A stretch of DNA of 64,000 nt from an uncultured virus (IMG/VR IMGVR_UViG_2061766007_000731). Taxonomy: Duplodnaviria > Heunggongvirae > Uroviricota > Caudoviricetes. The stretch's first letter is position 1; each line of letters opens with the position of its first letter. A model generated the notes under the pieces. It saw only the letters and a list, made by a program, of their open reading frames with translations, made no database searches and had not been told where the DNA came from. The stretch is taken from IMG/VR virus record IMGVR_UViG_2061766007_000731, one strand, 5' to 3'. The translations under genes were made by a program, and so were the position numbers. Shown piece by piece: positions 1 through 50,112 of this stretch.

Positions 1-42
1 TCTAATATTTAGTTTCAAATAGTTTTAAACTATTTTACTTAT

Positions 43-985
43 CCTTCACACCACTAAAAGGTAAAAAGACCAATATGAAGGTGTAGGCTGAGTCTTGACC
101 TACTAAACTGCTATTTTCATATCTTTACGATACTTAAACACATCCTTTTGAGATAAGCAGCACACAGACGGATTAACAGGTTCCGCAACCACTACACTTG
201 ATTATATAAGATACTCCTTTCTTTAGAACTCCTTGCCAGGTTAACGAGACGCCTCCCGCTAGAACTTAAATACTCGTTTCACTTCATAAATTGCCTTGCG
301 AGCTTTTTATGTCCCCATATTACAGAGGAATAACTGTGTTGTTATCAAGTGTGAGCAACACTTTTTGCTATAATTTATATTAATAAATGTACAACATATG
401 ACCAAAATAAAGCGAGTGGTTGCTCTTTCATGGAATGCTGTCTTTTGAACAGTTTACCCATAAACTCGCTTTTGCTACTCATCTGCCAAGATTTTCACTT
501 TCGAACGAAACTCATCCTACCATTTCTGATATCTACAAGGTGGCTAACCGAGTAGTGTCCGCCAAGACATAGGGCGCTAACGTCTTATCATGTATGCTAT
601 AAGGATGGCTAATCCCGTTTGGCATATCAAGCATACTTATTGTGTCAGTGTTACCACTCAAGACAGGTTGGTCAAACCCATCCTAACTCGCTATCACATC
701 TGCCCGATGTTACACCACGAATCAGTTACAAGTATGGTCTTCTTTTAGACTGCTATTCACAGCGCGGTTTTATATGTTGATAATAAACCACTTTATCCCG
801 TTACCGGATTATCCTAACGACATGAGACTTGCCGATATGAGGACTAGTGTGTCACCTCATTGTAAGTCGCCAATCGACTCTTAGGGTCTCTATAAAGGGG
901 AGAACACCTAACCCTATATAATGTAAGCAAATAGGCTTCATATTCGACTAAAGATCGCTCTTTAGAGCTTTCATCCACCACTCTT
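43..985 (-). ncRNA. Candidate large structured ncRNA (GOLLD/ROOL-like size and architecture)
   Basis: About 950 nt with no ORF of 60 aa or more, GC-richer than its flanks, with many nested inverted repeats (43-52/72-81 with G-U pairs only on the minus strand, 336-341/356-361, 409-417/464-472). Two multibranch units each contain a UCAAAAG-loop hairpin. Boundaries are approximate. Confidence 0.55.
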
Positions 986-1138
986 TTATTTACTTATATT
1001 ATATTGTACCTAAAAAACTTCGGCGTTTAATAGGCTTTTTATATTGTTCTATAATAATTATTAATACTATAGGTGGTAATATACACATAATTATATATAA
1101 AAATGTGTATAATACTATTTCATAAATTGCATGCCACA

Positions 1139-1441
1139 TTATTTCATAATATTTTGACATGTATTAATATATTCCTGAAGCAACGTTTCAACAGGTTTTG
1201 TTAATTGTTCCTGAACTTTTTCAGAAAAATCTTTGGGAGCTACAGGAATTTCTACAGCTTCTTGAGAAATTGTAAATTTTCCTAGATTTTTTACTTCGAA
1301 ACCTTGTTTACTAAATCCTAAAGTTTTCATTGCATTCATAATAGCTGAAGAAAAAGCTCTATGTCTGTCAATGTTGGTTTTATAATAACCATCCAAATCT
1401 TTTTGAATAGCTATCGCTTGTTTGATTTTCTCTTGAAGCAT
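1139..1441 (-). CDS. Hypothetical protein (start may lie in the N gap)
   Basis: 100-aa ORF with AT-rich phage codon usage and a TAA stop. Confidence 0.65.
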   Translation of the reverse strand: MLQEKIKQAIAIQKDLDGYYKTNIDRHRAFSSAIMNAMKTLGFSKQGFEVKNLGKFTISQEAVEIPVAPKDFSEKVQEQLTKPVETLLQEYINTCQNIMK

Positions 1442-1554
1442 TTTATNNNNNNNNNNNNNNNNNNNNNNNNNNNNNNNNNNNNNNNNNNNNNNNNNNNNNN
1501 NNNNNNNNNNNNNNNNNNTTTAAGTCAGAATAATGTTACTGCAATATTAGTGTA

Positions 1555-1680
1555 TCTTGTTAGCCTGCATCATGCTTAGCAGGAGCCTTGGTTGTCAAGC
1601 CTAGGAAAACAACCAGTTGTATAGAGCTACGTATCTCTATTGACCTGGCCTGTTAAACGAATCTTAATCGTTATAACAGT
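1555..1680. ncRNA. Candidate small structured RNA
   Basis: Consecutive hairpins: cctgc/gcagg, cttg/caag, ccag..atagag/ctctat..ctgg and ctgtta..aacga/tcgtt..taacag. Confidence 0.35.
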
Positions 1681-1895
1681 AAAACTAAAGAAATATCAAA
1701 ATATATAATGATTGAGGAAGAAGTACACATCACTTACAATTCGCTCTATGAAGACAATCTCGACCAAAACCAATGAGCAAAACGTCGAGTAAATATTTCT
1801 TTAGTTATAATATGAGAGTTTACTATATATTTTAATAAGGTTAAACTTACAATTTGGTAATTATAGTTCCTACTTACTAACAGCCTTATTAATCA

Positions 1896-2828
1896 CTAGC
1901 TCTNNNNNNNNNNNNNNNNNNNNNNNNNNNNNNNNNNNNNNNNNNNNNNNNNNNNNNNNNNNNNNNNNNNNNNNNNNNNNNNNNNNNNNNNNNNNNNNNN
2001 NNNNNNNNNNNNNNNNNNNNNNNNNNNNNNNNNNNNNNNNNNNNNNNNNNNNNNNNNNNNNNNNNNNNNNNNNNNNNNNNNNNNNNNNNNNNNNNNNNNN
2101 NNNNNNNNNNNNNNNNNNNNNNNNNNNNNNNNNNNNNNNNNNNNNNNNNNNNNNNNNNNNNNNNNNNNNNNNNNNNNNNNNNNNNNNNNNNNNNNNNATT
2201 CTTCTTGTAAATAACCATGTTCTATTAAATAGTTATTATATTTTTTTACAGATGGAACAGATATTCCAAGCTTATTGGCTAAAGCTGTATTATTGAATGA
2301 ACATTTACCAACTCCTGTATCTTTATCATAAAGATATTGTTGAATGTCCATATAATATTCTTTGATATTTACTGGCATATCTAAATCTAAAAACTCATCT
2401 GTAAACATTTCAAAATGTTTATCAAATTCTGTTTTTGGAAAATAATAATAATTGGTATATTTTCCATTTGGTGCTTTTTTTTGAGCTTTTTTAATAAACC
2501 CAGCTTGTATTAATCTATCTATAGCACCAGTAATTTTCGATTGCCCGCAATGCGTTTTTTCTTTTATTTTTCTTAAAGATGGAAAACATTCACGTGTGTC
2601 ATTATTCATATATCTGCGTATAGCAGCGTAAATAACTTTATCACCAGCTTCAAGAATTCGCTGTTCGTTTTCATTGTCTATTAAAGAGACTTTACGATTA
2701 TCCAATTCATGNNNNNNNNNNNNNNNNNNNNNNNNNNNNNNNNNNNNNNNNNNNNNNNNNNNNNNNNNNNNNNNNNNNNNNNNNNNNNNNNNNNNNNNNN
2801 NNNNATCGAAAAAAGAATGGGTACGCAC
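1896..2828 (-). CDS. Double winged-HTH protein, replication-initiator-like (both ends in N gaps)
   Basis: Two HTH-like segments, FPSLRKIKEKTHCGQSKITGAIDRLIQAGFI and NNTALANKLGISVPSVKKYNNYLIEHGYL. Lies next to an iteron array. Confidence 0.65.
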   Translation of the reverse strand: MRTHSFFDXXXXXXXXXXXXXXXXXXXXXXXXXXXXXXXHELDNRKVSLIDNENEQRILEAGDKVIYAAIRRYMNNDTRECFPSLRKIKEKTHCGQSKITGAIDRLIQAGFIKKAQKKAPNGKYTNYYYFPKTEFDKHFEMFTDEFLDLDMPVNIKEYYMDIQQYLYDKDTGVGKCSFNNTALANKLGISVPSVKKYNNYLIEHGYLQEEXXXXXXXXXXXXXXXXXXXXXXXXXXXXXXXXXXXXXXXXXXXXXXXXXXXXXXXXXXXXXXXXXXXXXXXXXXXXXXXXXXXXXXXXXXXXXXXXXXXS

Positions 2829-2910
2829 ATCTTAAAAATGAGTACGCATGTTTTAAATCTGAGTACGCATATCTCATTTTTGGGTACGCAAAACTCAATT
2901 TTGGGTACCT
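2818..2910. repeat. Five iteron-like direct repeats TG(G/A)GTAC(GCA) with 21-bp period; putative replication origin
   Basis: G(G/A)GTAC cores start at 2819, 2840, 2861, 2882 and 2903. They are followed by AT-rich short repeats (aactatacttaa at 2911 and 2952). Confidence 0.75.
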
Positions 2911-2974
2911 AACTATACTTAATATACTTAATAGATTTAATAGACTTAATGAACTATACTTAACGCGCGTGAGA

Positions 2975-3048
2975 AAATCTAAGGAGAGTTGATATATACT
3001 AAGGCCATGACTGAAGAAAAATAAAAAAATTTAACTCTCCTTAGATTT
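2975..3048. repeat. 16-bp perfect inverted repeat next to the iterons
   Basis: aaatctaaggagagtt (2975-2990) and aactctccttagattt (3033-3048). Confidence 0.8.
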
Positions 3049-3269
3049 AAAAATACGATTTTAAAGGCTAATCGTGAACCAGTCAATGGATAAAATATGT
3101 GGGCTCATATCTTTTATATCCTTAGTGTTGATTTGGTTAAACAGAGTGTTTACTGTTAGGGAGTACAACATCCTTCCCATACTTTTTGACATTTACCATT
3201 CTAAATCCCATAAACGCAAAAACCTTTTGAAGTTATATAATCTTCACAGGATAAAAAATAAAAAATTGA

Positions 3270-3605
3270 TTGTAACCTTACCAAGGTAGCTCATGTTCTT
3301 ATCATATGTAGCTCTCAGCACGGATCCCGGTCGACTGTCTACAAATTTTATCAAAAGATAAAACTAAAGCGTTAATTTCATAGAAATCAACGATTCACTT
3401 TAATGATACACTATGTTACTGACATGATGATACTATACAGGTTTGTCAATCTACACGCGTTCGATTAACCTCTCTGCCCGCTTTCTCAGTCCTAGTTACG
3501 GGAAATATTTGCTTTTGTAAGAAACAATAAACTTTCTAGTCTATCCTAGATGCCTAGCAATGTCTGGAAAAAAACCTTAAAATTTAAAAGTTAAAGACAT
3601 TGCGA
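3270..3605 (-). ncRNA. Candidate structured ncRNA
   Basis: ORF-free. Hairpins gcaatgtct/agacattgc, cccg/cggg, cgttgatttc/gaaattaacg and taaagtg/cgcttta, with G-U pairs favouring the minus strand. Confidence 0.35.
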
Positions 3606-3661
3606 TAGTACATATTTTTTTCTATGATGTGATTTTTGAGCAATTTAGTTTCATATAATAT

Positions 3662-3777
3662 TGGCGGTAAGGAGGTTACACCCTCTTATCTCAATCTTTA
3701 CATTACTTATCTAGACCGCCACGTAACGGCATTACTCATGGTCTAGTGGCTGCTTGTTAACCAAGCAGTCCTTCCGC
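3662..3777 (-). ncRNA. tRNA-like RNA ending in CCA with an expanded anticodon-position arm
   Basis: 5' GCGGAAGG pairs with 3' CCTTACCGC-CA. Internal stems are CTGCTTG/CAAGCAG, CTAGACC/GGTCTAG and GAGG/CCTC. Confidence 0.45.
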
Positions 3778-4199
3778 TATAACTTCAATTATATTTAATT
3801 AATTAGTAGTCTACTCGTGCAATACTTTCGAGGTAATCAAAAATATAATCTATCAACTTGGCAATGGGAAGAAGTTAAAATCGCCTGTTCTGGTGGCGTA
3901 ACCAAAAAAAGTACTATTACTTAAACCTTAACCCAGAGTTTTGAGAATAGTAATCGCTACGGGAGTTATTATGAAATCTATTCAAACACATGTTTTTATA
4001 ATAAAAAAACAACAATTCTAAGAAATCATCTCTTTTTACTTCCATAACCACAGAAGACCGAGGACTAGTTTCTCGACGCAAGACTCGGCATTTTGTCAGC
4101 AAATCAAAAAAATGTCAGAATTACTTCTAACGTTACTGGAATTTATTTACATCTGCCCAATACAGATGTTCTATATATTACTTAAATAAATAAGATATA

Positions 4200-4239
4200 G
4201 AAAAAATAAGCTTCTAGAACCTAAATTCTAGAAGCTTAT
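4200..4239 (-). terminator. Intrinsic terminator
   Basis: 14-bp perfect inverted repeat ataagcttctagaa/ttctagaagcttat followed by a T run on the minus strand, immediately after the 4243..4752 gene. Confidence 0.8.
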
Positions 4240-4242
4240 ATG

Positions 4243-4752
4243 TTACTTTGTGCAAATTTCAATCAACTGAACTAGTTCAGAGAGTTTTAATTCTGCACAA
4301 TCGAGAATGGTTTGGAGCTTATTTTTGGCATCAATAAGTTGATGTCTACGAGCAAGCTCTTGTTCTAGTTCTTCTATCGAAAAACTAGAAAGGGTGTTAC
4401 AATGGTTTTTTGCCATAGTTTCTCTTTTCTTACGAAGCATTTCTTCTTTCTTTTCCGGAGACATAGGTCCTCCAATCTTCGTACGAATCTGATACTTATC
4501 ACAATACATAACCATATTTTCATTTGAAAACATAGTAGGCTGAACTGCGATTTTATACACCCGGCCATATTTGTGATTCTGCAAAAAGAAGTTTTCTGCC
4601 ACACATGCGTTAAACAAACGAAGAAGTTCTTGTTCATTCGCATTATGAGGTTTCTTTTTTAAAGCTTGAACAAATGCTTTTTTGTTCGTGTACTCATGCT
4701 CACGCACGTATAATGCGAGATCTTGAGCTAGTTTGTTAATATTAATACACAT
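4243..4752 (-). CDS. Hypothetical protein with basic/coiled-coil C-terminus
   Basis: 169-aa ORF with an AT-rich leader and a downstream terminator. Confidence 0.75.
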   Translation of the reverse strand: MCININKLAQDLALYVREHEYTNKKAFVQALKKKPHNANEQELLRLFNACVAENFFLQNHKYGRVYKIAVQPTMFSNENMVMYCDKYQIRTKIGGPMSPEKKEEMLRKKRETMAKNHCNTLSSFSIEELEQELARRHQLIDAKNKLQTILDCAELKLSELVQLIEICTK

Positions 4753-5116
4753 TGATTTAATTTTTATAACACTTAATATTGTCCTCTGTATTTATACTGG
4801 CTTGGAACAGTCTTTGGCTACATTACAATATTCCCTCTTTTCTATTGCCTAACTGAAAGTCAAAATAAAAGATAGCTGGTCTTTTATTTCAGTTAGCTGC
4901 AGTGCAATAGAAAAGAGAGTATAATCTTCATGACTTCAATGGGAGCCTGCTAATGTCACGTGCCATTTAGCTGCATATTCTTTGAAATTATCTCAAGTAT
5001 AAACCTCTGTACTCCTTGGAGGGGAAACATATGAGGAATACTCTCATATCTTATCCTAAGCCCTGTTTGTCAGGTAGGACTTTAGTGCCCTTAGTTCGTA
5101 NNNNNNNNNNGTTATC

Positions 5117-19951: not shown

Positions 19952-22162
19952 ATGGCTAAAAAAGAAAAATGAGAAACTCCTTTAGAAAAAAAGGAGCGAG
20001 AAAATAAACTTATTTCGTTTAGCGAACGTTGAGAAGAAGAATTAAAACAGAGTCTTTTTGATACAGAAAGTAAATCTGAGGAAGTTCATACAGTTGTTCA
20101 AGAGAAATATGAATGACACAATCCACGTCCTAATGAAGAATGAGATGTTCCTATTACAGAAGAAATTAAATATTTTGATCCAGAGTTATCTTATGAACTA
20201 ACAGGTTATAGACCAATTACAATGGATAAAGGATTAGATTTTAATCCGGAATTATTTAGAGAAAGGGCTATAACATTTGAAAGAACTCATAAGTATACTG
20301 AATATCCAGCTGGTACTAAACCTTATAATGATTTTTGGGATGAAGAATATCGCAGATGCCAAAATGGTTTAACTATTGGAAAATATAGATTGACTGGGGA
20401 TCATTATTTTTTCTTGAACTATTATAGAATGTTTACTATTCTTGAAAGTAGTACTTCTGGTTCTGGACGTTTTGAAAATTTTCCAAGTTTTTTGTCTAAA
20501 CAATATGAATTTTTTCATTATGTTGAAATGGCAGAAAAACTTGGAAAAGATATATGTATATTAAAGGCTCGTGGTATTGGACTTTCTGAAATCGTTGCAT
20601 GTTTAGTTGTTAGACCATATACAACTAATCGTGGTTATCACGCTATGATAACTTGTGCTGCAGAAGCTAAATTAATTCCTTTAAAAAATAAGTGTTGGAA
20701 GCAGTTAGATTGGCTGAACATTAATACTCAAGGTGGAATGCGGCATGTACGATTAGTAGTAAATAATAACGATACTAAAAGAGCTTCTATTAAAACTCCA
20801 GATGGTGTTGAATATGGTTGAGGATCAGAAATAACATCTGTAGTTGCAGATACATCTGATAAGATTCGTGGCGATCGTATTGATAGACTTATATATGAAG
20901 AAGCTGGATCTAATAAAGTGTTAACTAGTTCGTGAATTAAAGGTGATGCTTTAGTAGCACTAGGCGGTAAACATTTTGGTAGTCGTATTGCATTAGGAAC
21001 TGGTGGCGATGATATGAGTTTGCAAGGATTAACTAATATGTTTGGTAATCCAGAAGCATATAACATATTACCGTTTAAAAATTATGATACTGATGATGGT
21101 AAACCAGAATTAACGTCATTTTTTATACCAGCTCATAAATTTGCTCTAACATCAGAATATCTTGATAATAGAGGAGTAACTAATTATAAAGAATTTAAAA
21201 AGTTTTATTTAAAGCAAAGAGAAAAACTTACTGACAAAGACTTTTTAAACGAATGTGCTGAACACTGTTTTACTCCTCGTGAAGCTTTATCAAAGCATGG
21301 CGATAATATATTTGATACAGTTGCAATATCTGAACGATTAGTACAAATAAAAGTTCAAGGTAATTATACTAAACCTAAACATATGGCTTTATTCTGAGAT
21401 CCTCAACCTGGAGGAGCAAAAAGAGTTAGAGCTGTAGAACATCCTGATTCGCATTTATTAGTTGTTGAACCACCAGTATTAGATGAATCTGGGCAACCGT
21501 TTAAAAATTTATATGTTGCTGGAATTGACGCTATTGATATGGGTAAAAGTGATTCTGCTACAGATTATGATGTATCTGATTTTTGTGTTGTAGTTAAAAA
21601 ACGACAATTTGGACAGAATGAACCAAAATACGTAGCATTATATAGATTTAGGCCAAACAACATTCGAGAAGCTTTTGAAATTACTATGAGATTATTAGTA
21701 TGATATAATTGTAAAGCTGTTCTTGAATATACTAAAATATCCATACAGACTTATTTTAAAGAACACGGAATGGGTCATCTGTTTATGTCTAGACCGAAAG
21801 TTGCATTACAAGGAGGTATTAAAAGACCTGGTAAAAATTTAATTGGTATTCCAGGCACTCCAAGTATAATTCAACATGGTTTAGAATTAATACAAAATTT
21901 TTTAAGCGATTATTGATATACAATAGATTTTGAAGAAATTTTAGATGAGATGTTAAATTATTCATATGAAAATAAACGCAAATTTGATATTATTGCTGCA
22001 ATGCAATGCTGTGAAATTGGAGACGAAGATATGACTGGTTTATCACCATCGGTAGTAGAATCTATTAAAAATCAATGAAGAGATATTGGCTATTACATTG
22101 ATGAAAATGGCTATAGACGTAAAGGAGTAATACCAAATGACAGAAATTGAAAAGCATATTAA
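19952..22162 (+). CDS. terL: Terminase large subunit, 736 aa (TGA=Trp)
   Basis: KARGIGLSE (Walker A), RGDRIDRLIYEEAG (Walker B), GTGG and YVAGIDAID (RNase H-like) motifs in a single frame with only TGA interruptions. Confidence 0.92.
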
Positions 22163-25351: not shown

Positions 25352-25538
25352 TGCAACTTTATTTAGACTATTAAAAGACGAACTTGACGATTTGGCAATT
25401 GGTAAATCTTATAATAAAAATAGATTACGATTAATGAAAGAAATTTGTTATATATTAGTATATGAACAATTTGTCACATTAAGCCCAACAGACGCATTGA
25501 AAATTTCAAAATTATTTAAATATAAAAAATGGCAATAA
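25338..25538 (+). CDS. Small hypothetical protein
   Basis: 66-aa ORF coupled to its neighbours. Confidence 0.6.
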   Translation: MENLSATLFRLLKDELDDLAIGKSYNKNRLRLMKEICYILVYEQFVTLSPTDALKISKLFKYKKWQ

Positions 25539-28500
25539 AATCTAAAATANNNNNNNNNNNNNNNNNNNNNNNNNNNNNNNNNNNNNNNNNNNNNNNNNNN
25601 NNNNNNNNNNNNNNNNCACCAATTGATAATATTCCTGTACAATCAGTAATTAGTTATTTAGAAACTACAAACATTACTCCTAGAGATTATTATAAAGGAA
25701 CTTCGTTTAGATATTCTGGAGAATGATTAACTGGGACACATTATTTAAATGATCAATACTTTGTAGATTTTGTAGTTATTAATAATGTACTATTATGTTG
25801 TAAGAAGAGTCATTTGTCTTCATTAGAATCAAAACCAGTAAGATTTATATACGACGATAAAGGTAATATAGTTGGTATAGATTCTGAATATTGAGATTTT
25901 GTTTTATCTGGATTTAATGTAATTGGTGGTAATTTTCAACGCTATTATGAAGGAAATACTAGTGATATAACAAATCCTGGTGAAGGCGATATATGTACAG
26001 TTCCTAATTCTAATACTAGTTATATATATTATAAAGGTGAATGACATCCTTGATTATATATATCTTTAGATAATATAACTAATTGAAATAATAAAGCAGA
26101 TAAAGTTCATTCTGCCGTTGCAGGTCACATTGCTACCCTCGATTCTTCCGGCAACCTTGTTGACTCCGGTAAGGGTATTAGCGACATAAACCCTTTGTGG
26201 GGCAACATCCAGGGCTCTCTCGAGAATCAGACGGACTTGATGTCCGCACTTGGAGATAAATATGAGAAACCTTCTACCGGCATTCCCGCTTCGGACTTGG
26301 CAAGCGGCGTGATCCCCGACGTGAGCAACTTCATCACGGCATCTGTCGATAACCTCGTCAACTACTACCTCAAATCCGAGACTTACACGAAGGCGGAGGT
26401 ACAGGCCCTCATTGGTGCTATCCAGTCATTCCACTACGAGATTTACGCTTCGACAAGTGCGGTGACGAATCCGCAAGGGAATGTGCTTTATCTCATCGGC
26501 CCTACAGGAAGCGGTAGTGACAAATATGAAGAGTATGTGTATGATGTAACCAAGCAGAATCCTTGGATAAAGTTTGGTGACACGAGCATAAATTTATCGG
26601 ATTATGTAACGATAACCGCTCTCAATACGTCCCTCTCTGCTTACACCACGACCGCCGATCTCAATACGCTCCTTGCCGCCAAGCAGGATGTCATTGATGA
26701 CCTTGCTGCTATTCGTAGCGGTGCTTCTGCTGGAGCAACGGCATACCAAAAGCCAGCGAATGGCATACCCGCATCTGATTTGGCAGCAGGTGTTGTTCCT
26801 GACGTGTCCGGCAAGGAAGACAAGACAAATAAAGTAAGTGCTTTTCAAGTAACACCCGATGATACACACTATCCAACTGAAAAACTTGTCAAGGACAGTC
26901 TTGATGCCAAGCAACCGACTATTGACGCGAATCATAAGTTGGACTACTCATTGCTGAGTAATACGCCTACTATTCCGACGGTTCCTACGGATATAGTCAA
27001 GTACACGGCACAATCGCTTACGGATGCCCAAAAGACGCAGGCGCGTACCAACATAGGCGCAGGAACTTACTCGATGCCGTCTGGTGGCATCCCAAAGACC
27101 GATTTGGCACAAGCCGTCAGCACGTCTCTCAATCGTGCAGATGCGGCCATCATCTATACCGACCTTGGCGAGCCGGATTGGGAGGAGTATGATTATGATA
27201 CTTCTGCGTTCTTGACTACGCTCCGAACGACTGGGTATTACTCCTTTACGATGGACGAGGAGTTTGTGTATTACGTCACGGTGCAGGCGATAGAAATGGG
27301 TTCATATACCTATGTGCTCCAGCAGTATTGGGGCTCTGAGGAAGGACCCGGAAGTGTCTATTATAGAGGCTTCGTCTGGGACAACGACAACGACGAGGTT
27401 GTCTCGGACAACGATATGTCGTATATGACTATCCAGCAGGCGAGTGACCTTTTTGCCAATAAAAACCACAACCACTACAAGAACGAACGGGACACCGCGC
27501 CTGTATGGTCGTACTGTGACACGATGCAGACGCTGGATGCTACGAGTGAGGTAGTATATACCGATACGACAACCTCGACCCAGTGGCTTATCGAAGGGGC
27601 ATACTCGATATACCAACCAGCGGTTAGGTATCAAAAGGTGACGCCACTGCAAGGTGGGACTTGCTATTATCAAAGGTGTGGTACCGTGGCTTCGAACACT
27701 GTGACGTGGGGGCCTTGGTATCGCTTCGATACGGTCGAGGCGAACCCTACCGTCCCTGCCGGTACGACGCCGACCTCGCTCACTGGGTTGAAGATTGGAA
27801 GCGACTATTACGACATAGAGGCTGGCGGCGGCACGGTTACTGACGTGACCGTTGGCGGGACTTCCGTCGTTGATGGCAACGGCGTGGCGGTCGTCCCCGC
27901 AATTCCTACGGTCAACGATGCGACGCTGACGATTAAGATGAACAATGCCAGCAAGGGCACGTTCTCGGCCAACGCAGCGTCGAATACTGAAATCGACCTC
28001 GGCACGGTAATCACCTCGCATCAGGACATATCGGGCAAGGCCGACAAGGTAAGCGGCGCTACAAACGGACATTTCGCCGGGTTGGATAGTAACGGCAACC
28101 TTACGGACAGCGGAAAGGGCGCAAGCGACTTCGGAACGTACAGCAAGCCGTCGGGCGGTATTCCGGCTTCGGACTTGGATTCTGCCGTACAGACGAGCTT
28201 GGGAAAGGCTGACACGGCGCTCCAATCGTTCACGGAGACTGACCCTACCGTTCCATCCTGGGCTAAGGCATCGAGCAAGCCGAGTTACGACTACTCCGAG
28301 ATTGGCAACACGCCGTCTCTGGCTACCGTAGCGACCAGCGGTTCGTACAACGATTTGAGCAACACGCCTACCATCCCCACACTCAATCTGTTCATCGTGA
28401 CCGTCGGCTACGATAGTGAGGAGGATGAATACTCCATCACTAACGATGTGTCATTTGCCGACCTGTGCGCCGCTTACGAAGCAGGCAAGGCACTAATCCT

Positions 28501-31500
28501 TATCTATACCGACGATGGTGGCTATGCACAAGAGTACACTTTGTCCGATTATGCGGCAGACGATGACTATATAGCGTTTTCATCATCCTCTGTCCCGGAG
28601 ATAACTAAAATATTTTCGATTGGTAGCGATGGGTCTGTAGGATATTCGGAACAAGTGGCGAGGATGAGCAGTATTACCAATGATGTCCTTTTTGTAAGAG
28701 GGCACAATGCAATATGGAGAGGAACTTGCGCGACCTCGGCATCTACGGCAGCAAAATATGCCAGCTGCTCGTCGTTCCTTCCAGAAGACCTTGCCGTGGG
28801 CGTGATGGTGGTCGTCACGTTCTCCAACACAAACATAGCTGCGCCGAACAACCTCACGCTAAATATCGCCGCTCGCGGCGCGAAGCCCATCAAGCGGTGG
28901 GTAAACGGCGGCTTGGCGGATATAGACAAGCCAGAAAACCTCACGGGGACGATGGCTTTTGTTTATGATGGGACGAACTGGGTGACTTGGTACGAGTCAT
29001 TCGACAATGATGACGGCAACTGCTTGGATGCTAAATTCGGCAATGTTACCCTCCATCAGTGGAAGCCCGACTACACTATGACGGAAGGCTCGTATGTAAA
29101 GGGCGCGGACGGGTTGCTTTACGAATATAGCGGCTCCAAGTATGTGGAAGTTGCTGTCGGCGACGCGGAGCGGGTGCGATTCCTTGGGATTTATCCTAAA
29201 TACTCCTCTTGGACGAATGGCTTTGCCTTCGGAAAATACGAGAACGACCAATGGGTTACGATTGAGAGTGAGAAGTTCGGCTACGACACCTCGCAAGATG
29301 CAAGTATTACTATGGAGTATATCCGTGCCGTCCCTTCCGGGGCGACGCATTTCCGCACATCGAGCGCAACATCGTCGCTGCTTGCTCTTGAGCGGAACTT
29401 CTACCTCTATTTCCAAACGGGCAAGCCTGCCGTCAGTCAGGAGGAATTAGAAACAGCACTTACTAATAAATATGAAAAACCTTCAAGTGGAATTCCTGCT
29501 AGTGATATTGCTTCTGGAGTAATTCCAGCGGCATCTAATGATAATCCATCTATGGATGGAACAGCTTCTGCTGGAACTGCATCTACATATTCAAGAGGCG
29601 ATCATATACATCCTACTGATACATCAAGAGCCCCATTAGCATCTCCATCGTTTACTGGTACTCCTACAGCACCTACTGCATCGTCTGGTACTAATACTAC
29701 TCAAATTGCAACAACAGAATTTGTAGCAGGAGAACTATTACCATATCAACAATTAGTAATACAAATAACTGGTAGTGGGAATACTTTAGTAGAATCAAAT
29801 ATAATTTCAGATATTATTCCTGGGCATTTTTACAGATTTTGAATAAAAGATTGAGATGTTAGCGGTGTTACTGTAACAGGTTCTACTTATATAAAATTAC
29901 GTATTAATTATCTTAATTCTAATAATACTAGCACTTCATTAATTACAAAATATGTAAATAACTCGTTAGCAGATTATTATGATATTGAAATTCCTAGTTC
30001 TGCTGTATCTGTTGTTGTTAAAGGTCGTGTTTCTAGTGGATCAATTGGTAAAATATTTATAGAAGATATTACTTCTATAATAGAAAATAATGGAAATTAT
30101 ATAGTACCACAAATTGATGAATCTCCGTTACTAAAAATAGAGAATGAGATAAAACCTTTGTTGTTTCTACAGGGGCAGCGTCTTTTGACGGAGGGTGGAA
30201 CGGAACAAGCCGGTACAATCGCAGCGACAATCAATATCTACAAGAACATTACTTCGAACACTAAATACTATATTACCGCATACTCTCCGAGCCTCGCTAC
30301 CGTCTGTGCCGCACAACACACTAAATCAAGCGGCGACTTGTTGCAAGCATATACGCTCGGCAACACGGGGACCTATAAATATAGGCAGGAGATAACGACG
30401 GCTACGACAAGCCCCAATGCCTCAAAACTCCTCGTATATGGTTCGGATACGCAACCCATCTTGCACCGTGTCCTCCGCGTCCTGCTTATAGGCAGTTCCT
30501 GGCACATGAACACCTGGTGGTATCTGAACAAGATGTTCGCCGATGCGAACGTCGTAGCCGACCTTCACGCATACTATATGGGCCATTCGCAATTCTACGA
30601 ATGAACACAATTATATGATAATAATTTAACACCATTGACAGGAGATGAAGCATCTCGTGACGCTCGTTATTGTATATCGTTAAATGGGGCAAATTGAACT
30701 TCACATGTATTTAATGATGCATTTGGAAATGAAACTTCTACACTAACGGCTCAACAATATAGAGACGCTTTTTATAATGATTTGACATCTGGTAATTGAG
30801 ATATTATAGCATATCAACAAGGTGCAAAAGAAAGTATAACATGAGAAGCTTGATCTTATTATTCAGATTTAGTTTCTATTTTAAAACGTCATTTAAATTC
30901 AAATGGTTTTCTTGCATTTAATGCAACATGAACTCCCGGTATTAATTGAACTTCAATGTCTACATATGGCTATGATAATACAATTAATGGGCAAAGAAAT
31001 TGACAAGAAGACGCAAATGTTAATACAAGAAAATTTATGATACTTTCTGGACAAAATAAAGTGGCACCTAATGGCGAACTTATATGAAAAATGCGCAGAG
31101 ATGATACTTTAAATACTTCGGGTGATTTAACGTCAGATAACTTGCATTTGGCTAACGGATTACCTATGTATGCTGCTGCAGGATGTTGATGAGAAACATT
31201 CATATCTCCATCTATGGGTATCCCATTTGATACTTTAAGTTGATTACCAGATAGTAATACTCAAAAAATACATTTTAATGGGAGTGAATTTATGAGTATT
31301 AGTTCTGCACAACAAGCTTTAGTGCGTAAATATATAAAAGAAGCTTTATCTGATAGATTTGGCGCCGATTATTATGATATATCTAAAGCTTCTGTTGCGT
31401 CAATAACTGTTCCTGCAATTTCAAATAATATAGCTGCCGATAAANNNNNNNNNNNNNNNNNNNNTATAATGAAGTGCATCCTGTTGTTTGTACTACAGAA

Positions 31501-31761
31501 CCTACTGGAGGAATGTTGCCAAATATTATGTATAATTTTGGAGAATTATCTGGAAATACAACATTTACAATGGCTTCTCCAACAGACGCTGGTATTATAA
31601 ATCATTGATATTGAACTTTTAGCACTTCTAGTACAGCTCCAACAATTACATGGCCTTCTAATATAACAAGTTGATTTGATGGATCTGCGCCTACTATCGC
31701 AGCAAATAAGTATTATGAAATTAGTGTATTAAATGGAATTGCTATTTATTTAGAAATATAA
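25529..31761 (+). CDS. Giant mosaic tail fibre/receptor-binding protein, ~2070 aa, with an SGNH-hydrolase-like domain (TGA=Trp)
   Basis: Fragments at 25529, 26195, 30158 and 31292 are in frame; the C-terminus after the N gap near 31450 is in another frame. Contains KPxxGIPASD repeats, SPSFTGTPTAPT and RVLLIGSS...WDIIAYQQG...DNLH. Confidence 0.8.
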
Positions 31762-39272: not shown

Positions 39273-39846
39273 NNNNNNNNNNNNNNNNNNNNNNNNNNNN
39301 NNNNNNNNTCAATACTACACTATAACAAATTTACGAGATGATTTATCTACAGCGGTAATTAATAATAAAGCGTATGAGGCTGAGAACGATAGTTTAATTA
39401 ATAAAAATATTGAGTTTAATTATACGGTAGCACAATTAAATCAGAGTGCAGATTCTNNNNNNNNNNNNNNNNNNNNNNNNNNNNNNNNNNNNNNGAATAT
39501 AAAAGAATTACAATATATAGCATCTCATTTACAAAAAATTGATAGTATTTACGTAAGAGATACGATTTTTAGAGATAGTAATTTTATTTTAGATACTATA
39601 ATATCAGATGAATGGGCTAAATTACAATTACATTTACAATATCCAAATGAAATAGCAGCTGGATATTCTTTTAGAAATGAGACGGTTATAGTATCTTCTT
39701 CTAAAAAAGAAACAATTAATCCTCCGAATAAATGTTGGTTAATTAGATTATTCCAACGAAAACATAAAATTATTGAAGTAGAAGTAATTCAAAATAATCC
39801 ATATTGTGAAAACGATATGCACAAACATATAAAAATTGTAGAATAA
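39241..39846 (+). CDS. Spanin-like (Rz-type) membrane-anchored coiled-coil protein
   Basis: Hydrophobic N-terminus (partly in gap), coiled coil and RDTIF motif. Confidence 0.55.
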   Translation: MLQNIKFWIGXXXXXXXXXXXXXQYYTITNLRDDLSTAVINNKAYEAENDSLINKNIEFNYTVAQLNQSADSXXXXXXXXXXXXXNIKELQYIASHLQKIDSIYVRDTIFRDSNFILDTIISDEWAKLQLHLQYPNEIAAGYSFRNETVIVSSSKKETINPPNKCWLIRLFQRKHKIIEVEVIQNNPYCENDMHKHIKIVE

Positions 39847-42800
39847 TGAGCACACTCGATAATGTATCTAAAATTGGTAAACAAAATCAAAATTTAATTC
39901 TTGAAACAGCTGGACGTATTTGAATTAAAGTACAAGATAAGTTTTATGAATTAGATTTTAGACAACAAAATAAAGGTTTTAATAAATCTTTAGCAACTAA
40001 TACAAGTGATTCAGAGTTAACTGCTGAAAACACTCCTGATTTAAGTAATTATGTTACAAAGAAATATTTAAGAGCTAGTTTATCTGAATATGTAACTAAA
40101 AGAACGTGGAGTGGTATTAAAGAAACTACCGATATGCTACAAAATTCTTTATTGGAAGGTTTTACTGAAGCTATTAATCCTATTACAATTAATACAATGC
40201 AATTGGTTGTAGGTTCAGAACAACTTCAGTATGATTTTATTACAAATTTTACCTCAAGTACTGTTGTAGCAGCTCCGATAGTAAATTTAAATAGAAATAC
40301 AGTAGAACTTAGTGATAGTTTTATAAAACATTATACAATTGATGGGCCAACTACAGCAAGAGGAGAAGGTTCATGGATAGAAAATGGAGTTACTGTTAAT
40401 AATGTAGATGAATTACAAACACAATATTGTCGTTGGCATATTAAAGGTACAACGTTAAATATTGGAGACGAAGGATATTACTTATATTTAAAAGTACCAG
40501 TGCTTAATGTTGAAGATGATTATCCACAAATAGATCGATCTACTGGGAATTATAAATTAACTTCTACTGGCAGTTATACCGCTTCTATAACACAAGCTTT
40601 ATATTGAAAAACTAACGCAGAAGGTGCTACAGATTCTAATGGAGATTTACTATACCCTAGTTATGAGTCTCTTGGAAATGAGGATGGAGAATATATAGTA
40701 TCAGAAACTGCCATTCCTTTATCATCCGATAGCGATTCCACACATTATTATTTTCTATTAGCAATTATTAATAGTGTTAATGAGGATGGGGAAAGAGAAT
40801 ATACGACAATGAATGGGTTTACAGAAATTACTCCAGGACGTGTCACAGCATATAGATTTATGAGTCCAGACGGTCAGCAATATTTAAATTTTTTAAATAA
40901 AACTTTCCACTTAGGGGACAATTATAGTTATATTGATTTTGATGCTAGTACTGGTATTTTTTATCTTAAAGGCACTCTTGTGCAATCTCCATCTGGTGAT
41001 ACTGAATTTCCATTACCTTGCTACAGAGGTGAATTTGATCCAAATAAAGTTTATTATAAAGGAGATATGGTCACATATGATGGCAGATCATGAATATATG
41101 TATATAACACTCCTTCAAAAACTGTTCCAGGAACTACTTTAAAAGTAGCCGATAGTAATTATAATATAATTTTAGATGGAGAGGGCAATCCTATAGAAGT
41201 TTTAGACGACAATAACAATCCTATCTATCCATGAGATCTTTATGCAGAAAAGGGTAGAGGAGTTACAACTTTTACTAGTTATATATTTACAAGAATTCCA
41301 GAAGGATATGATATAAGTAATCTTCCACCTTCTGGAAATGATGGTAGTTATAATAGTCCAGTTCCTTCAAATACTTATCATTATAATAATGGAAATACTT
41401 CTGCAGATTCGTTTATTTGATATGATTCTATACCAGATACAAATGGTATTATATGAATGTCTACTAGATTATTTTCTGCAGATGGTGGAACGCCTCAACA
41501 AGCAACATGAACGAATCCAACAACAGCTATGGATTCTGCCGATATTGATTATGAATGAAGTGAAGTTGCAATAATACCAACTACTGGAAAAGGTAGCAGT
41601 CCTTCTAATGATTATAATTATGCTACCGATGGTATTTATCCATATTGGTCTAATACTGCAACTTCTGATACTATTTGAATGGCAGTTAGAAAAAAGACTG
41701 GAGGGGAATGAAGTTCGTGATCTATCATTAAAGTGAAAGGTGAAAACGGTTTAGATGGAGAGGGTAGTTTAATTATTGATTTAGATAATGAAGTTGATGC
41801 TTTAGGTATTGGTGATGACAATGTATTAGATTTAAGCGATAGTTATCCATTAGATTCTAATAATAATACTAGATATGTTGAATTAGAAACTAATGTGAGT
41901 CTTGCATATGGATTAGATCCACAAACAATAACTAATATTACTTTAAGCGGTAGTGCAATTGGAGTGTCTGGTTTTATTACTCCAATTATAGAAGATAATG
42001 GTTTATCTGGAGATAGTAGAGTTTGTACTGGTAATATAAAATTTAAAATTTACGATGGTGCTACTATTCCAGAAAATACTGTAATTACAATTACTGCTTA
42101 TTGTATTATCGAAAATGTTCAGCGATATAAATCTATATCGTATACATTAGTTGGTGTAAAAGGCGGCAAAGACGGAGTTGTATATAAGTTACTACCATCT
42201 GTAGATTATGTGAAAAAATATAAAGATGGTACATATTCTAGTGGATCTGTTACCTGTACACGTATGCAAAGAAGTGGGGATGGGTTATTAACAGATGCTA
42301 GTAGTGTTGGTAATCTTTATGTTATTAAAAATGACACAGATCAAACTACATTTGATGAAGTTACTAATAGAAGTACACTGTTGTATAACGGAGGAATTAA
42401 TCCTTCTGGATTAGAAAAAATAATTTTTATTTGAACTACTACTAGCGGGTATTTATTAGATAGAGAAACTGTTCCTATAATTGAAGATGGATTAGATGGA
42501 TTTGATACATTTACTTCTATAGTATTTACTCGTAGTAATACTACTCCTGCTCAACCAGTTGGCGGTGATTATTCCGATCCAATACCAACTAATGTAGATG
42601 CTACTACTGGAAACTTAATATGAAGTGACGGCATTCCTTCTGGATCTGCAAAATTATGATCCTCTTCAAGAGTATTTTCTAGTAATCCTAATTTTAGTAT
42701 TACTACTTGAGATGCGCCTAGCCAGATGACAGATACTGCAACTTATGATGTAGAATTTGCATATAAACAAGTAGATGACGCTACTCCAGCAAATCCTAGC

Positions 42801-45800
42801 GATAGTCCTAATAATAGACACGATGATTCTCATCCATATGGATACGTTAATCAGATATGATTTGATCCGGAAAAAGATAAATATTCTGCATTAAATACTT
42901 TACGTGATTTTACTTCTATTTATTGAAGAGCTGAAAGATTTTGTAAAAATGGAGAATGAAGCGATTGAGTTATTATTCGTGTAAAAGGAGAGGCTGGAAA
43001 TGATGGATTATCTGCAGATTTAAGTAATGAGATAGACGCTATAGAAGTTGGAACAGATGGAATTTTAAATTCTACAGTTACTAATTTAAGTACTGTAGCA
43101 TCTTTACAGATAGCATCGTTTCCTGTAGAATTGAATTCCACCACTCCTTGTAGTATTAATGTATCTCCATTATATAATGCTTCAACCTGTCCTAAAGGAT
43201 TTACATGAAGTACTACAGCTAATGACACAAGTAGTAATTTTGTTATAGTTGCATCTAGAGATTCTATTAATACTAATAAATTAAATGTTAGTATTAAGAT
43301 TAATAGTAATACAGACTTTACTGAATATTCAACTGTTAACATTAGATTTACATTACATCCTGCGGATGGTTCTGATGATAAAGATGTAACATACACTGTT
43401 GTAGCTTTACGTAAAGGAGAAGATGGTTCTGTATATAAATTAATACCATCCTCGGATTTAATATTATACGATAAAACTGATAATAGTTATTATGATAATA
43501 CTAGTACTATTTCTTGTTGTAGATATAAAAGAAGTGGTAATGGTAATTTAGCTGTAAGTACAGAAGGTTATTTCTATTATGAAAATGCAAGTAGTGTTAA
43601 AACCCCGTATACAAATAATACATCTATAAATGTTAATCCGTTTATATCTAGTGGTAAAAAAGAAATTGTATTTTATTGAACATCTGTAGAAAATTCGTTC
43701 TCACAAATAAATTTATTAGATAGAGAATCTATTCCTATTATATCGGATGGAGAGGATGGCACTAGTCCTTTTTATATAGATGTAGACAATGAAATGATTT
43801 CATTTAGTGTTGGTGAAAATAAAACACTTGATACTACTATAACAGACACAATTAATTTAGAAGCGTATGTTGGTAGAGAAGCACAAGATATAGGTACTTC
43901 TCAGGTAACAGTTAATATTCCTAATACATATAGTGGTTATATTACAGCATCAAAAACTGCATCTTCTGTTGGAGATTATGCTGTTGCTATTAATTTTACT
44001 TTTAGATCTGGTTTATCATTTGATACTATCTCTGTAATTAGTATTCCTATTCAAGTTACCGTTAATGGTAAATCTGCATTTTTTGTATATAAAGTAAATG
44101 GTATTAGAGACGGTGTAGATGGCGAAACTTATTCGTTAATCCCCAATCCATCTGCTGTTCATTATAATCCAAATGCATCTTCTGGTAATGAATTTGATGG
44201 AGTATCTTATGTTACTTGTACTACAAATACGACAGGATATAATATTTGATATACGTTAGATAATTCTACAGTTAGAACTGCATATAGTAATCCTGGTATT
44301 GCAGTTACATCTTTTACAAAAAGAATAATATTTTATTTATATAAGGATACTTATAATAGTACTGCTGTTAATGGCACACATGTTAATGATTATGTTGACG
44401 TAGAAACTGTATTAAGAATTTCTGATGGAGCGAACGGAAACGCTGTTAAAGTAGATTTAACTAATGAATTTGATATGTTATTGTATGATAGTAGCGGGCA
44501 GACTTGTCTTGAAACAAATGGTGTAACCACTACAGCTAGTATATATGATGGAATTGATGTATCTAATAGTGTAAGTGTAACAGAATGAGAATGATCTGAA
44601 CAAGGATGTACTATAAGTGGATCTAGTAATGGTAAAAAATATGGAAGAAGTATTACAATTACTGGGATATCTGGAACATCTGGATATGCAGAGTTAAAAG
44701 TTACATATGACGAGAAACCATATTATGCAAGATTTAATGTTAAAAAGCTTATAGGACAAAGTAAATACCAAATTTTAGTAGAACCTACTAGAATAGGTTA
44801 CAATGAAGGAACTAACACTGGATCATCAAGTTCTATAAATGTTAAAGTTTATCATACTTATCAAAATAGTTCTGGAGTTTTGACTACAGAATTTGTGAGT
44901 AATTTGCCAAATAATTATAAACTTAAACAATATGTTGTCGACTCTACTGGTAATTCTACATCTTCTAATGTAACTAGCAGTTATAATAGTAGCACTGGCT
45001 ATACAATTCATTCTGGTAGTGGAGGTTCTTTATCGTATAGCAATAGACAATATTCTTATGAATTGTTAGATGCAAATAACGTTCGTTTAGATTATGAAAC
45101 TATACCTATCGATAAAGTTACGTCTGGCAGAAACATAGTAGTATTACATTTATATACAAGAAATAGTACAACAGCAGCTTCCGCTCCTTTATTTACAAGT
45201 GGTTCTACTTATACATTTAGTACAGACACTTTAACAGGAATTCCTAGTAATTGAAGTAGAACTATTCCAGCTTCTAGTAACAACGGAATGTGTTATTATA
45301 GTTGTGCAACCGCAAATGCTTTAGTTGATATTATTGATGCAACTACTTTAACTTGAACAACTCCTGTTGTATATACTTTTGACGGCAATAGTATTGGAAA
45401 TGTTACATTATACCAAAGATATGCATCTCCGGAGATAGCAGCTAAACCGAGTGCAACGATATACTATAAAATTTCAAATAATACGTTTTATAGTGATTCT
45501 GCCGCTACTATTGCATATGATAGTAGTACTGCAATTCCAAGCGGCTGATATCCAAATATAGATTGAGCTACTACTGTAAATACTCCTGCAGCTTGACCGT
45601 TATATATAACTACACAATCTATAAGTTCGTCTAATGATATTGTAACACTTACTTCAAGTAATTGAAGTACGCCTGAAAAGTTTACAGGCAATGATGGTCA
45701 AATTGGACCTCAAGGTAAGATTATGAGAGGTGTTAATGTATGAACTAAAGATGGTATTAATATTGAAGGAGATCATAACTGATATGGTATAACAGATCCT

Positions 45801-46805
45801 AATTCAATTTTTTATGATGTTGTATCATATACATCTAATGGTAATACAAATCTTTATTATTGTCAAACAACACATCAAGCTAGTACTAGTAATTATCCTG
45901 GAAGTAACGATGGGGCTAATCTTTGAGTTGCTGCAAATAAATTTAAATTTGTAGCTACAGATATACTATGAGCGGATAATGCTAAAATTAATCTTACTGC
46001 CGGATATGGCTTTTATGCGTTAGATTCAAACAGTAATGTAGTAGCTGGTATGCTTGGTAGAGAAAATGGCAATAGTGTTAATGGAGATATTAACTTTTTT
46101 GCTGGAGCTAGTGAAAATAATATAGCAAATGCTCCATTTAGAGTATATTATGATGGTAGTATGACGGCGACTAATGCAAATATTACGGGTAATATTACTG
46201 CAAGTACTGCTACATTTAGTGGTTGAGAAAGAACTTATTACGAAAGTATGTCATTAAATGATGNNNNNNNNNNNNNNNNNNNNNNNNNNNNNNNNNNNNN
46301 NACAGTTAGAACAGATTCTGCTGGAATTCCAAAATATAGTAATTTATTATTTGATGGAGATTCTTCCCGTTTACTTTATTCTTATGCAGATAATCATATA
46401 TTAAATTTTCCAGCCGCGTCTGCATTACTAAATGGATTTACTTTTAAAATTATTATATCCCCAAGACTCACCAAGAGTGTGGGTGAACCGGGATATTTAA
46501 TTTTACATCCTATTAGTGGAGATATTATAGATTTTACAACATCGGATTTTAATAATGCCCATATTGTTTCCGCTAAATATATAGGTTGTTATTCTGGTAT
46601 TATAGAACTGGTATGCTGTTCTTGGATGGGTTCAAATACATATGATTGGTGTATAACATATACAACATGTAGAAAAGATTATATATCTGCTATATCTGGA
46701 AGTAATATTACATATTCTGATAGTAATAGCTATAACATTCAGACAGCGGTAGGTTCATCCGCCGGTTCAAATAGTAATATATTATATTTTATAACAGAAA
46801 GTTAA
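39846..46805 (+). CDS. Giant tail protein, ~2320 aa (TGA=Trp)
   Basis: Fragments at 40134, 40809, 41733, 43794, 44880 and 46248 share one frame. Repeated GxDG...DLxNE...LDRExxP units and a NAPFRVYYDG motif. Confidence 0.82.
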
Positions 46806-49800: not shown

Positions 49801-50112
49801 GATGGCGCAATTCTAAAAGTTCGATTCTCCTCTATTGCTTCCAATGCTGCTGGCAGACGATATAGAATTCGCATTGATATATTAGGTAATGGAACAACTG
49901 CCATTGGTGGTGGTACTCGTTATGAAAGTGAATGATACGGAATTCCTTCATCATCTGGTACACAATATGAATCAATGACTAGTTCTTTCTCGTTCGATAA
50001 AGATGAAGTAGAACAATATAACTTTATAAGATTTAGATTCTCATTAGAGGGAGCGTCTGGTGAAGATCTTACGATGAGTGGTAATTATCTTGATATTGAT
50101 TTTAATGTATAA
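46807..50112 (+). CDS. Ser/Thr-rich beta-repeat (BACON/Ig-like) adhesin or tail protein, 1101 aa (TGA=Trp)
   Basis: Fragments at 47035, 47665 and 48406 are in frame; repeated PAxGG...Q and TWTSG units. Confidence 0.72.

Follow-up and report, generated by a model that had tools for sequence, protein, structure and literature searches.

The window, by which we mean the whole stretch of 64,000 nt of phage DNA analysed here, begins with an RNA locus on the minus strand, in the early/replication arm of a distantly crAss-like phage that recodes TGA and occurs in bovine gut metagenome runs. The RNA is located ~1.4 kb from a gene for a DnaD-like, replication-initiator-like protein (2198-2828, minus strand). 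Genes on the plus strand from ~8.8 kb on fuse into long frames when TGA is read as Trp, and they break up under code 11 and with TAG=Q; among the proteins encoded by the fused frames are a terminase (phrog_6681, E 2.6e-71), a portal (phrog_6547) and tail proteins. The terminase (19952-22162) contains 11 in-frame TGA codons and is 49% identical to that of an unannotated 117-kb faecal phage record and ~29% identical to the terminases of crAss-like phages, in agreement with the initial annotation, which had placed the locus in a recoded crAss-like phage. In the unmasked window, no suppressor tRNA was detected. The recoding is split by module, the late genes (8800-64000, plus strand) needing TGA=Trp and the early genes (1100-4800, minus strand) being open in the standard code. 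Under code 4, very large late proteins of 2023, 2333 and 1101 aa are encoded at 25529-31600, 39804-46805 and 46807-50112 (plus strand), with tail or tail-fibre PHROG matches or none. The stretch is contained in bovine gut metagenome runs, and two DNA contigs from another study are at least 99% alike.

Large phage RNAs of this kind had been expected to lie often near tRNAs, which does not seem to apply at this locus: ARAGORN found no tRNA in the unmasked window, a statement that cannot cover 1447-1518, one of two parts that read N (the other is 1904-2197), since these 72 nt are tRNA-sized. Between the masked parts, 1519-1903 (~385 nt) has no long ORF, a G+C content of ~0.29-0.34 and weak Rfam matches only (E 4.8).

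The RNA was delimited with two alignments of relatives, A3 (53 sequences of the 3' domain) and A4 (14 full-length sequences). It is conserved and covarying over ~750 nt, and its plan consists of a 5' domain, a long hairpin with an invariant CAAAAG loop, a variable A/U-rich linker, a pseudoknotted 3' core and a CUCAGCC hairpin. The features are as follows:

836..985, minus strand: upstream flank, hairpin-rich, unconserved, outside the conserved RNA (unaligned in relatives; fold z -1.05)
82..835, minus strand: entire conserved RNA of ~754 nt, probably a divergent GOLLD-family non-coding RNA (blastn, A4 conservation, 211-pair covariation)
474..835, minus strand: 5' domain (nhmmer 5'-domain profile matches in the family; A4 helices 1-20)
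817-835, minus strand: 5'-terminal hairpin UCGGCAAGUCUCAUGUCGU (start of A4 conservation)
789-816, minus strand: conserved 5'-domain motif UAGGAUAAUCCGGUAACGGGAUAAAGUG (related motif at a fixed place in 10/20 classical GOLLD 5' regions)
474-498, minus strand: small covarying hairpin, part of the 5' domain (A4 helices)
409..472, minus strand: long hairpin closed by AAAGCGAG/CUCGCUUU, Rfam GOLLD model positions 1-65 (Rfam alignment)
438-452, minus strand: stem-loop CUGU-UCAAAAG-ACAG inside the first long hairpin (Rfam alignment, A3)
363..408, minus strand: A/U-rich variable inter-domain linker ending in conserved AGCAAAA (differs in length and sequence across A3 and A4)
353..425, minus strand: pseudoknot helix of GAGCAAC (within 417-425) with GUUGCUC (within 353-362), which crosses the helix that closes the first hairpin (covariation)
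107..362, minus strand: 3' core, Rfam model positions ~136-398 (Rfam alignment; A3 helices 5-15; A4 helices 24-38)
344-354 with 191-202, minus strand: long-range helix of the 3' core
312-329, minus strand: 3'-core hairpin CUGUAAUAUG
285-311, minus strand: 3'-core hairpin CUCGCAAGG
162-190, minus strand: pseudoknotted hairpin of the 3' core
107-161, minus strand: closing helix GCUGCU/AGCAGU, enclosing the second CAAAAG hairpin and the GUAAA hairpin
141-155, minus strand: second CAAAAG hairpin
119-133, minus strand: GUAAA hairpin
81..105, minus strand: 3'-terminal hairpin UAGUAGGUC..CUCAGCCUAC, Rfam model positions 399-416 (Rfam alignment)
43..81, minus strand: downstream flank, unconserved, with no terminator-like site or ribozyme detected (A4; terminator and ribozyme scans)

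A conserved and covarying RNA of about 750 nt

Relatives were collected from IMG/VR by pattern scans and then with nhmmer profiles made from a 12-sequence alignment (A2). The first 15-mer scan returned 118 mostly chance-like stretches, among which only L005 and L075 were nhmmer-significant against the window RNA and L044 and L097 were marginal. In IMG/VR, 88 loci had a 5' and a 3' domain in colinear order on the same strand, and they gave 52 usable distinct sequences of 674-783 nt; one further entry, L144/L218, was dropped because it ran off its contig. Scanning metagenomes with a pattern tailored to the window's subclade yielded 16 loci, some of them fragments, all of which matched the 3'-domain profile and 10 of which matched the 5'-domain profile. 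The clade comprises at least 68 loci. The closest metagenome relative (L338) is 75.6% identical over 782 nt (window 838..83), and four others (L351, L343, L349 and L347) have the same start and end points.

These alignments revise the extent of the gene, which had been proposed to span 43-985 (~950 nt). The closest relatives align by blastn to window 838..83 with 72-76% identity across the RNA, and the conservation in A4 starts at the hairpin UCGGCAAGUCUCAUGUCGU and ends after CUCAGCCUAC (~82). In these closest relatives no conservation was detected in 836-985 and 43-81, and 836-1000 folds like shuffled sequence (z -1.05; 24 of 200 shuffles equally good). Since the flanks are unaligned and the upstream region folds like shuffles, the gene is ~754 nt long, and the earlier span was ~190 nt too long.

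The RNA strand is the minus strand, as the initial annotation had read from the G-U pairs. On this strand, 82-835 has a minimum free energy of -202.5 kcal/mol (z -2.27; 1 of 20 shuffles equally good), compared with -161.9 kcal/mol (z -0.80) on the plus strand; G-U makes up 12-15% of the paired cells, and the pairing drops from 92-96% to ~81% when the opposite strand is read. The G+C content is 0.34-0.445 over 1-1000 versus 0.215-0.30 over 1001-1500.

The recoding of TGA in the late genes speaks for another reading, in which the stretch encodes protein under an alternative genetic code, and we consider this next to impossible. Long ORFs are absent as first described, the longest frame overlapping 43-985 being 53 aa under code 11 and 73 aa from stop to stop under code 4; reading through TAG gives a longest frame of 85 aa. 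When the 14 A4 sequences were assessed under code 11, code 4 and TAG read-through, no conserved ORF was found, and the longest frames (48-182 aa) vary in position, strand and length. Moreover, the substitutions are compensatory in helices and follow no codon pattern.

RNAalifold predicted 71 pairs on A3, 65 of them with compensatory double changes, and the addition of two hairpins and one pseudoknot by eye from A3 brought the structure to 83 pairs. In this structure 91.8% of the cells are paired, compared with 67.5 +/- 0.5% in 500 shuffles and 39-46.5% when the partners are slid by 1-3 columns. Double changes occur in 75 of the 83 pairs (shuffles 59.8 +/- 2.3; slid 39-50), and the covariation score is 0.708 (shuffles 0.244; slid 0.10-0.14); none of the 500 shuffles equalled the observed values. 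The full-length alignment A4 contains 211 pairs in 39 helices, 95.8% paired versus 37-43% when slid, with double changes in 124 of the 211 pairs (shuffles 81.6 +/- 4.2; slid 26-45), although in both alignments the agreement is inflated relative to the slid controls because the structures were derived from the same alignments in which they were counted. The covariation among homologues, which had been suggested as a check, is strong. Four long-range helices of A4 (columns 51-54/856-859, 148-151/832-835, 245-248/643-646 and 259-262/634-637) have almost no covariation and are distrusted.

A column-pair screen of A3 revealed two covarying helices, one of 7 bp (columns 92-98/224-230) and one of 5 bp (284-288/484-488), which cross other helices and thus form pseudoknots. 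The former consists of seven stacked column pairs with pairing of 0.83-1.0 and covariation of 0.85-1.21; the window pairing GAGCAAC with GUUGCUC was read by eye from the strand sequence, the window row being offset by one column in A3. The pseudoknot columns 458-460/470-472 of A3 are 78.8% paired, with GC, AU and GU exchanges. RNAalifold predicted almost nothing on the unpaired sub-blocks of A3, and the extra helices came from column-pair covariation and inspection by eye.

The initial annotation had pointed to two recurring motif blocks, and both are present with helices that covary in relatives: AAAGCGAG..CUGU-UCAAAAG-ACAG..CUCGCUUU at 409-472 and GCUGCU..AUC-UCAAAAG-GAU..UAUC-GUAAA-GAUA..AGCAGU at 107-161 (both minus strand). 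The CAAAAG loop of the first hairpin is invariant in 53/53 A3 sequences, and the stems that flank it covary (A3 helices 2-4; A4 helices 21-23). The CUCA of the 3'-terminal hairpin is likewise invariant in A3, where all six pairs of helix 16 show double changes. The second hairpin with a (U/C)CAAAAG loop (window 141-155; A3 columns 496-517) occurs in A3 in the window, L123, L151, L153 and L189, and the remaining 48 sequences have a UGYAGWAAURCA hairpin, which is replaced by the CAAAAG-loop hairpin in the window's subclade. The RNA of this subclade therefore carries the same A-rich loop twice.

Relation to GOLLD and ROOL

GOLLD RNA was reportedly described by Weinberg et al. in 2009, and we know of no established biological role for either GOLLD or ROOL. 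The initial annotation had proposed a GOLLD- or ROOL-type RNA or a new class, and had named the two families and group I and II introns for an Rfam scan. In the e-value mode over window 1-1900, the whole of the GOLLD model RF02032 (1-416/416) aligned with 472..85 of the minus strand, at 79.9 bits and E 1.5e-20. This score is about half the curated gathering cut-off of RF02032 (150 bits), and the gathering mode gave no match in the whole window. The other seven of the eight Rfam matches at E<=10 in window 1-1900 are weak (E 0.39-8.6). ROOL (RF03087) has no match at E<=10 in window 1-1900, and group I and group II introns have none at E<=10 in the same region and none in the gathering mode, so of the named families GOLLD alone was borne out.

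The model behaves similarly with the relatives. When six family-bearing records were searched with the GOLLD model alone, four matched over the full model with 117.8, 76.1, 64.1 and 64 bits, and two, among them the contig of L131, a close relative from the window's subclade, had no match at E<=1. An Rfam e-value search on 32.8 kb missed L075, because the filters depend on the input size, and this locus reached 64 bits once its contig was searched with the GOLLD model alone. End-to-end alignments to RF02032 were obtained in five sequences, the window included, with E values from 1e-17 to 1e-34. None of the 56 family loci (40 from IMG/VR and 16 of the subclade) reached the cut-off of 150 bits.

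A classical GOLLD set was assembled from 47 loci fetched by a pattern from the Rfam consensus, 20 of which were tested with the model. All 20 score 270-323 bits, above the cut-off, and 48 tRNAs and 4 tmRNAs lie around them; the family loci have two tRNAs in 40 IMG/VR loci and five in 16 subclade loci. Published settings of classical GOLLD include prophages, Lactobacillales and Mycobacterium. The family nhmmer profiles matched 0/47 classical-pattern loci at E<=0.01, and with the filters off they gave weak, individually non-significant matches (E 0.013-0.9) at two consistent places upstream of the classical 3' domain. Two short 5' motifs are shared. By regular expression, motif 1 (UAAACC-loop-GGGAUAAAGU) was found in 10/20 classical and 25/53 family sequences, and motif 2 (UUGAG-hairpin-CAAUAAGAA) in 9/20 and 14/53, respectively. 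Both are at fixed positions and colinear, with a spacing of 171-185 versus ~176 nt. The window contains a variant of motif 1 (789-816), lacks motif 2 and fails both regular expressions.

According to PMC12990946 and 10.1101/2024.12.08.627333, the 3' domain of GOLLD is conserved and its 5' domain varies, and the linker J13/15 faces the cage interior; tRNAs are embedded in this linker (PMC12990946). A 5' domain of ~350-420 nt, less conserved and attached through a variable linker, is characteristic of GOLLD, and the window RNA agrees with this layout, with covarying helices in 474-835 and the linker at 363-408. In our family, tRNA-Lys(CUU) is located inside the inter-domain linker in two relatives (L340:1378-1450, minus strand, and L339:609-681, plus strand). 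In a third relative, tRNA-Ile(GAU) at L342:1579-1650 (plus strand) follows the first hairpin, with the 3'-domain profile alignment resuming beyond it, and thus probably also lies within the linker. The linker of the window (363-408) has no tRNA.

The window RNA and GOLLD are alike in being phage-borne RNAs of ~750-830 nt with two domains, a variable linker able to carry tRNA, a UCAAAAG-loop hairpin and a 3' core with pseudoknots, terminated by a CUCAGCC hairpin. The order of the elements is also the same: the CAAAAG hairpin, the linker, the long-range helix, the CGCAAG hairpin, the A-rich and GNRA-like hairpins in the closing helix, and CUCAGCC. Meanwhile, the window RNA differs from classical GOLLD as follows: First, it scores 79.9 bits, whereas classical loci score 270-323, and no flanking tRNA array was found. 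Second, the carriers are ~100-119-kb phages with crAss-type terminases in contrast to the classical tRNA-array loci. Third, several hairpins are rebuilt; for example, CUGUAAUAUG replaces a longer hairpin. Finally, the 5'-domain element UUGAG-hairpin-CAAUAAGAA has been replaced in the window's subclade. With ROOL the RNA shares its character as a large, ornate, phage- and rumen-associated RNA, and the bovine gut habitat fits the name, but the lack of a match to RF03087 in window 1-1900 at E<=10 sets it apart. ROOL is itself described in 10.1101/2024.12.08.627333 as an RNA-only cage whose sequence and secondary structure are distinct from those of GOLLD, with intertwined 5' and 3' parts.

These differences could also mean that the RNA belongs to a new class of large ornate phage RNAs, which resembles GOLLD in parts through convergence or module sharing and is no homologue of it. 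All 56 family loci are below the gathering cut-off, a score gap separates the family (64-118 bits) from the classical loci (270-323 bits), the family profiles miss 47/47 classical-pattern loci, and the gene neighbourhood differs, with no tRNA arrays. We regard this explanation as improbable nonetheless, since five sequences align to the Rfam model over its entire length (E 1e-17 to 1e-34), the element order is identical to that of GOLLD, tRNAs are inserted at the same linker, and the 5' motifs are colinear with equal spacing. From these sequence comparisons we conclude that the RNA is most likely a deeply diverged homologue of classical GOLLD, probably over both domains, with the note that the shared 5' motifs are short and that the window fails both of their regular expressions. 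Taken as a whole, window 82-835 on the minus strand is, with a probability of about 0.88, the gene for a phage-encoded, large structured non-coding RNA of a far-diverged GOLLD branch. This makes it a further branch of an established family rather than a novel kind of RNA: the full-length match to RF02032, the two-domain plan, the tRNA-bearing linker and the 5' motifs favour the GOLLD part of the original proposal, and its ROOL and new-class parts fall away.

A blastn search of GenBank phages with three queries (the window RNA, L133 and L139) returned no match, and the clade is below the Rfam threshold. The published survey of GOLLD applied the Rfam model to NCBI bacterial genomes and GenBank phages only, and it probably missed the clade owing to this limited scope. 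A literature search returned no paper combining "GOLLD RNA" with crAss terms, and in a wider search "GOLLD" did not appear among the matches listed. The motif CUGUAAUAUG has no occurrence in the accessible part of Supplement 4 of PMC12286853, in which gapped alignments could hide it. The clade brings a major group of phages from the gut and the environment into the GOLLD family, and indicates which features survive deep divergence, namely the CAAAAG loop, the linker, the pseudoknots and the terminal hairpin.

Carriers, transcripts and RNA ends

Five family-bearing IMG/VR contigs of 102-119 kb, 91-100% complete by the collection's estimate, were examined, and all five encode a terminase of 730-765 aa. 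These terminases are 22-30% identical to that of the window and open in the standard code. Their presence in 5/5 carriers ties the family to ~100-kb phages with crAss-type terminases. Pattern matches in genome contigs were mostly spurious, 49 of 51 being ruled out as family members; of the two members, one is on a 4.6-kb contig from an Alphaproteobacteria MAG and the other on a 48.8-kb contig from a Bacteroidia MAG, which does not suffice to assign a host.

Contigs from the RNA run X3 match the window RNA over 282 nt with one difference and over 161 nt with one difference and two gaps, and those of the RNA library X9, from another study, contain related pieces. These contigs show the presence of the sequence in RNA libraries, which is not proof of transcription and gives no strand. 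Neither the contigs from RNA libraries nor those from DNA cover 1-80 and 817-1440, and one contig continues with unlike sequence at 816; since contigs cannot show ends, we draw nothing from the uncovered parts.

A scan of the window for sigma-70 promoters and terminators yielded nothing above shuffles. This lack of a recognisable promoter or terminator, together with the initiator-like gene (2198-2828, minus strand) ~1.4 kb away, would suit a dependent element, either part of the early transcripts (a structured leader or trailer) or an element acting at the level of DNA, for instance an origin by the DnaD-like gene. Several observations make this explanation very improbable. Conservation and covariation end sharply at 82 and 835, and the G-U pairs fix one strand as RNA. 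The close relative L131 has an intrinsic terminator directly after the RNA (L131:1252-1283, minus strand, which is the RNA strand), with a 12-bp stem with 6 GC and a T-run, 9 nt past the conserved end; no intrinsic terminator was found in the window or in L338. Furthermore, two 165-kb contigs that are related to the window via the DnaD-like protein (L001 and L002) have no GOLLD match in the flanks or in the whole records, so the RNA is not tied to the initiator gene. In some relatives a self-cleaving Pistol ribozyme lies at or near the 3' end, which again argues for an independent RNA gene.

The ribozymes adjoining family RNAs are as follows. Pistol ribozymes were found at L140:872-933 (minus strand), 5 nt after the RNA 3' end, and at L139:1965-2026 (plus strand), ~280 nt downstream, and a Hatchet ribozyme was found at L207:292-425 (plus strand), ~850 nt upstream of the family RNA. 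They suggest that some members are trimmed by self-cleavage. A ribozyme scan of window 1-140, which includes the 3' end, found none.

A possible RNA cage

GOLLD and ROOL were recently shown to be RNA-only cages larger than the ribosome. In the cryo-EM study of env-38 GOLLD by Kretsch et al. (10.1101/2024.12.08.627333 / PMC12286853) and in related work, env-38 forms a 14-mer and the S. agalactiae 3' domain mainly a 10-mer (10.1101/2024.12.08.627333; PMC12990946). The intermolecular A-minor bridge of GOLLD is described there as involving conserved A-rich positions flanked by covarying stems, and kissing loops as closing the cage (10.1101/2024.12.08.627333; PMC12990946).

By homology, copies of the window RNA may assemble into a protein-free closed shell, as do env-38 and the S. 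agalactiae 3' domain. The shell contacts would be A-minor contacts of the conserved A-rich loops and loop-loop pairings, and the linker would face the shell interior. In this scheme the CAAAAG loop would correspond to L14 of the cryo-EM papers, an assignment of our own, and the RNA would act in infection as a candidate scaffold or container. The scarcity of tRNAs at the family loci marks tRNA arrays as dispensable, which constrains functional hypotheses, and the clade provides new sequences for structural work.

A more specific reading is that the RNA represents a crAss-phage lineage of cage RNAs that became separated from tRNA arrays, with a stoichiometry or contacts unlike those of env-38 and a linker that presents or sequesters cargo during translation takeover. 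The rebuilt hairpins and the second CAAAAG loop of the subclade are what would point to a stoichiometry or contact set unlike that of env-38; we hold this reading to be tentative and somewhat doubtful. If it were true, a cargo-handling linker, sometimes tRNA-bearing, would be especially relevant in a TGA-recoded phage. Among the six phages examined (the window and the five contigs), only that of the window needs TGA recoding in its terminase.
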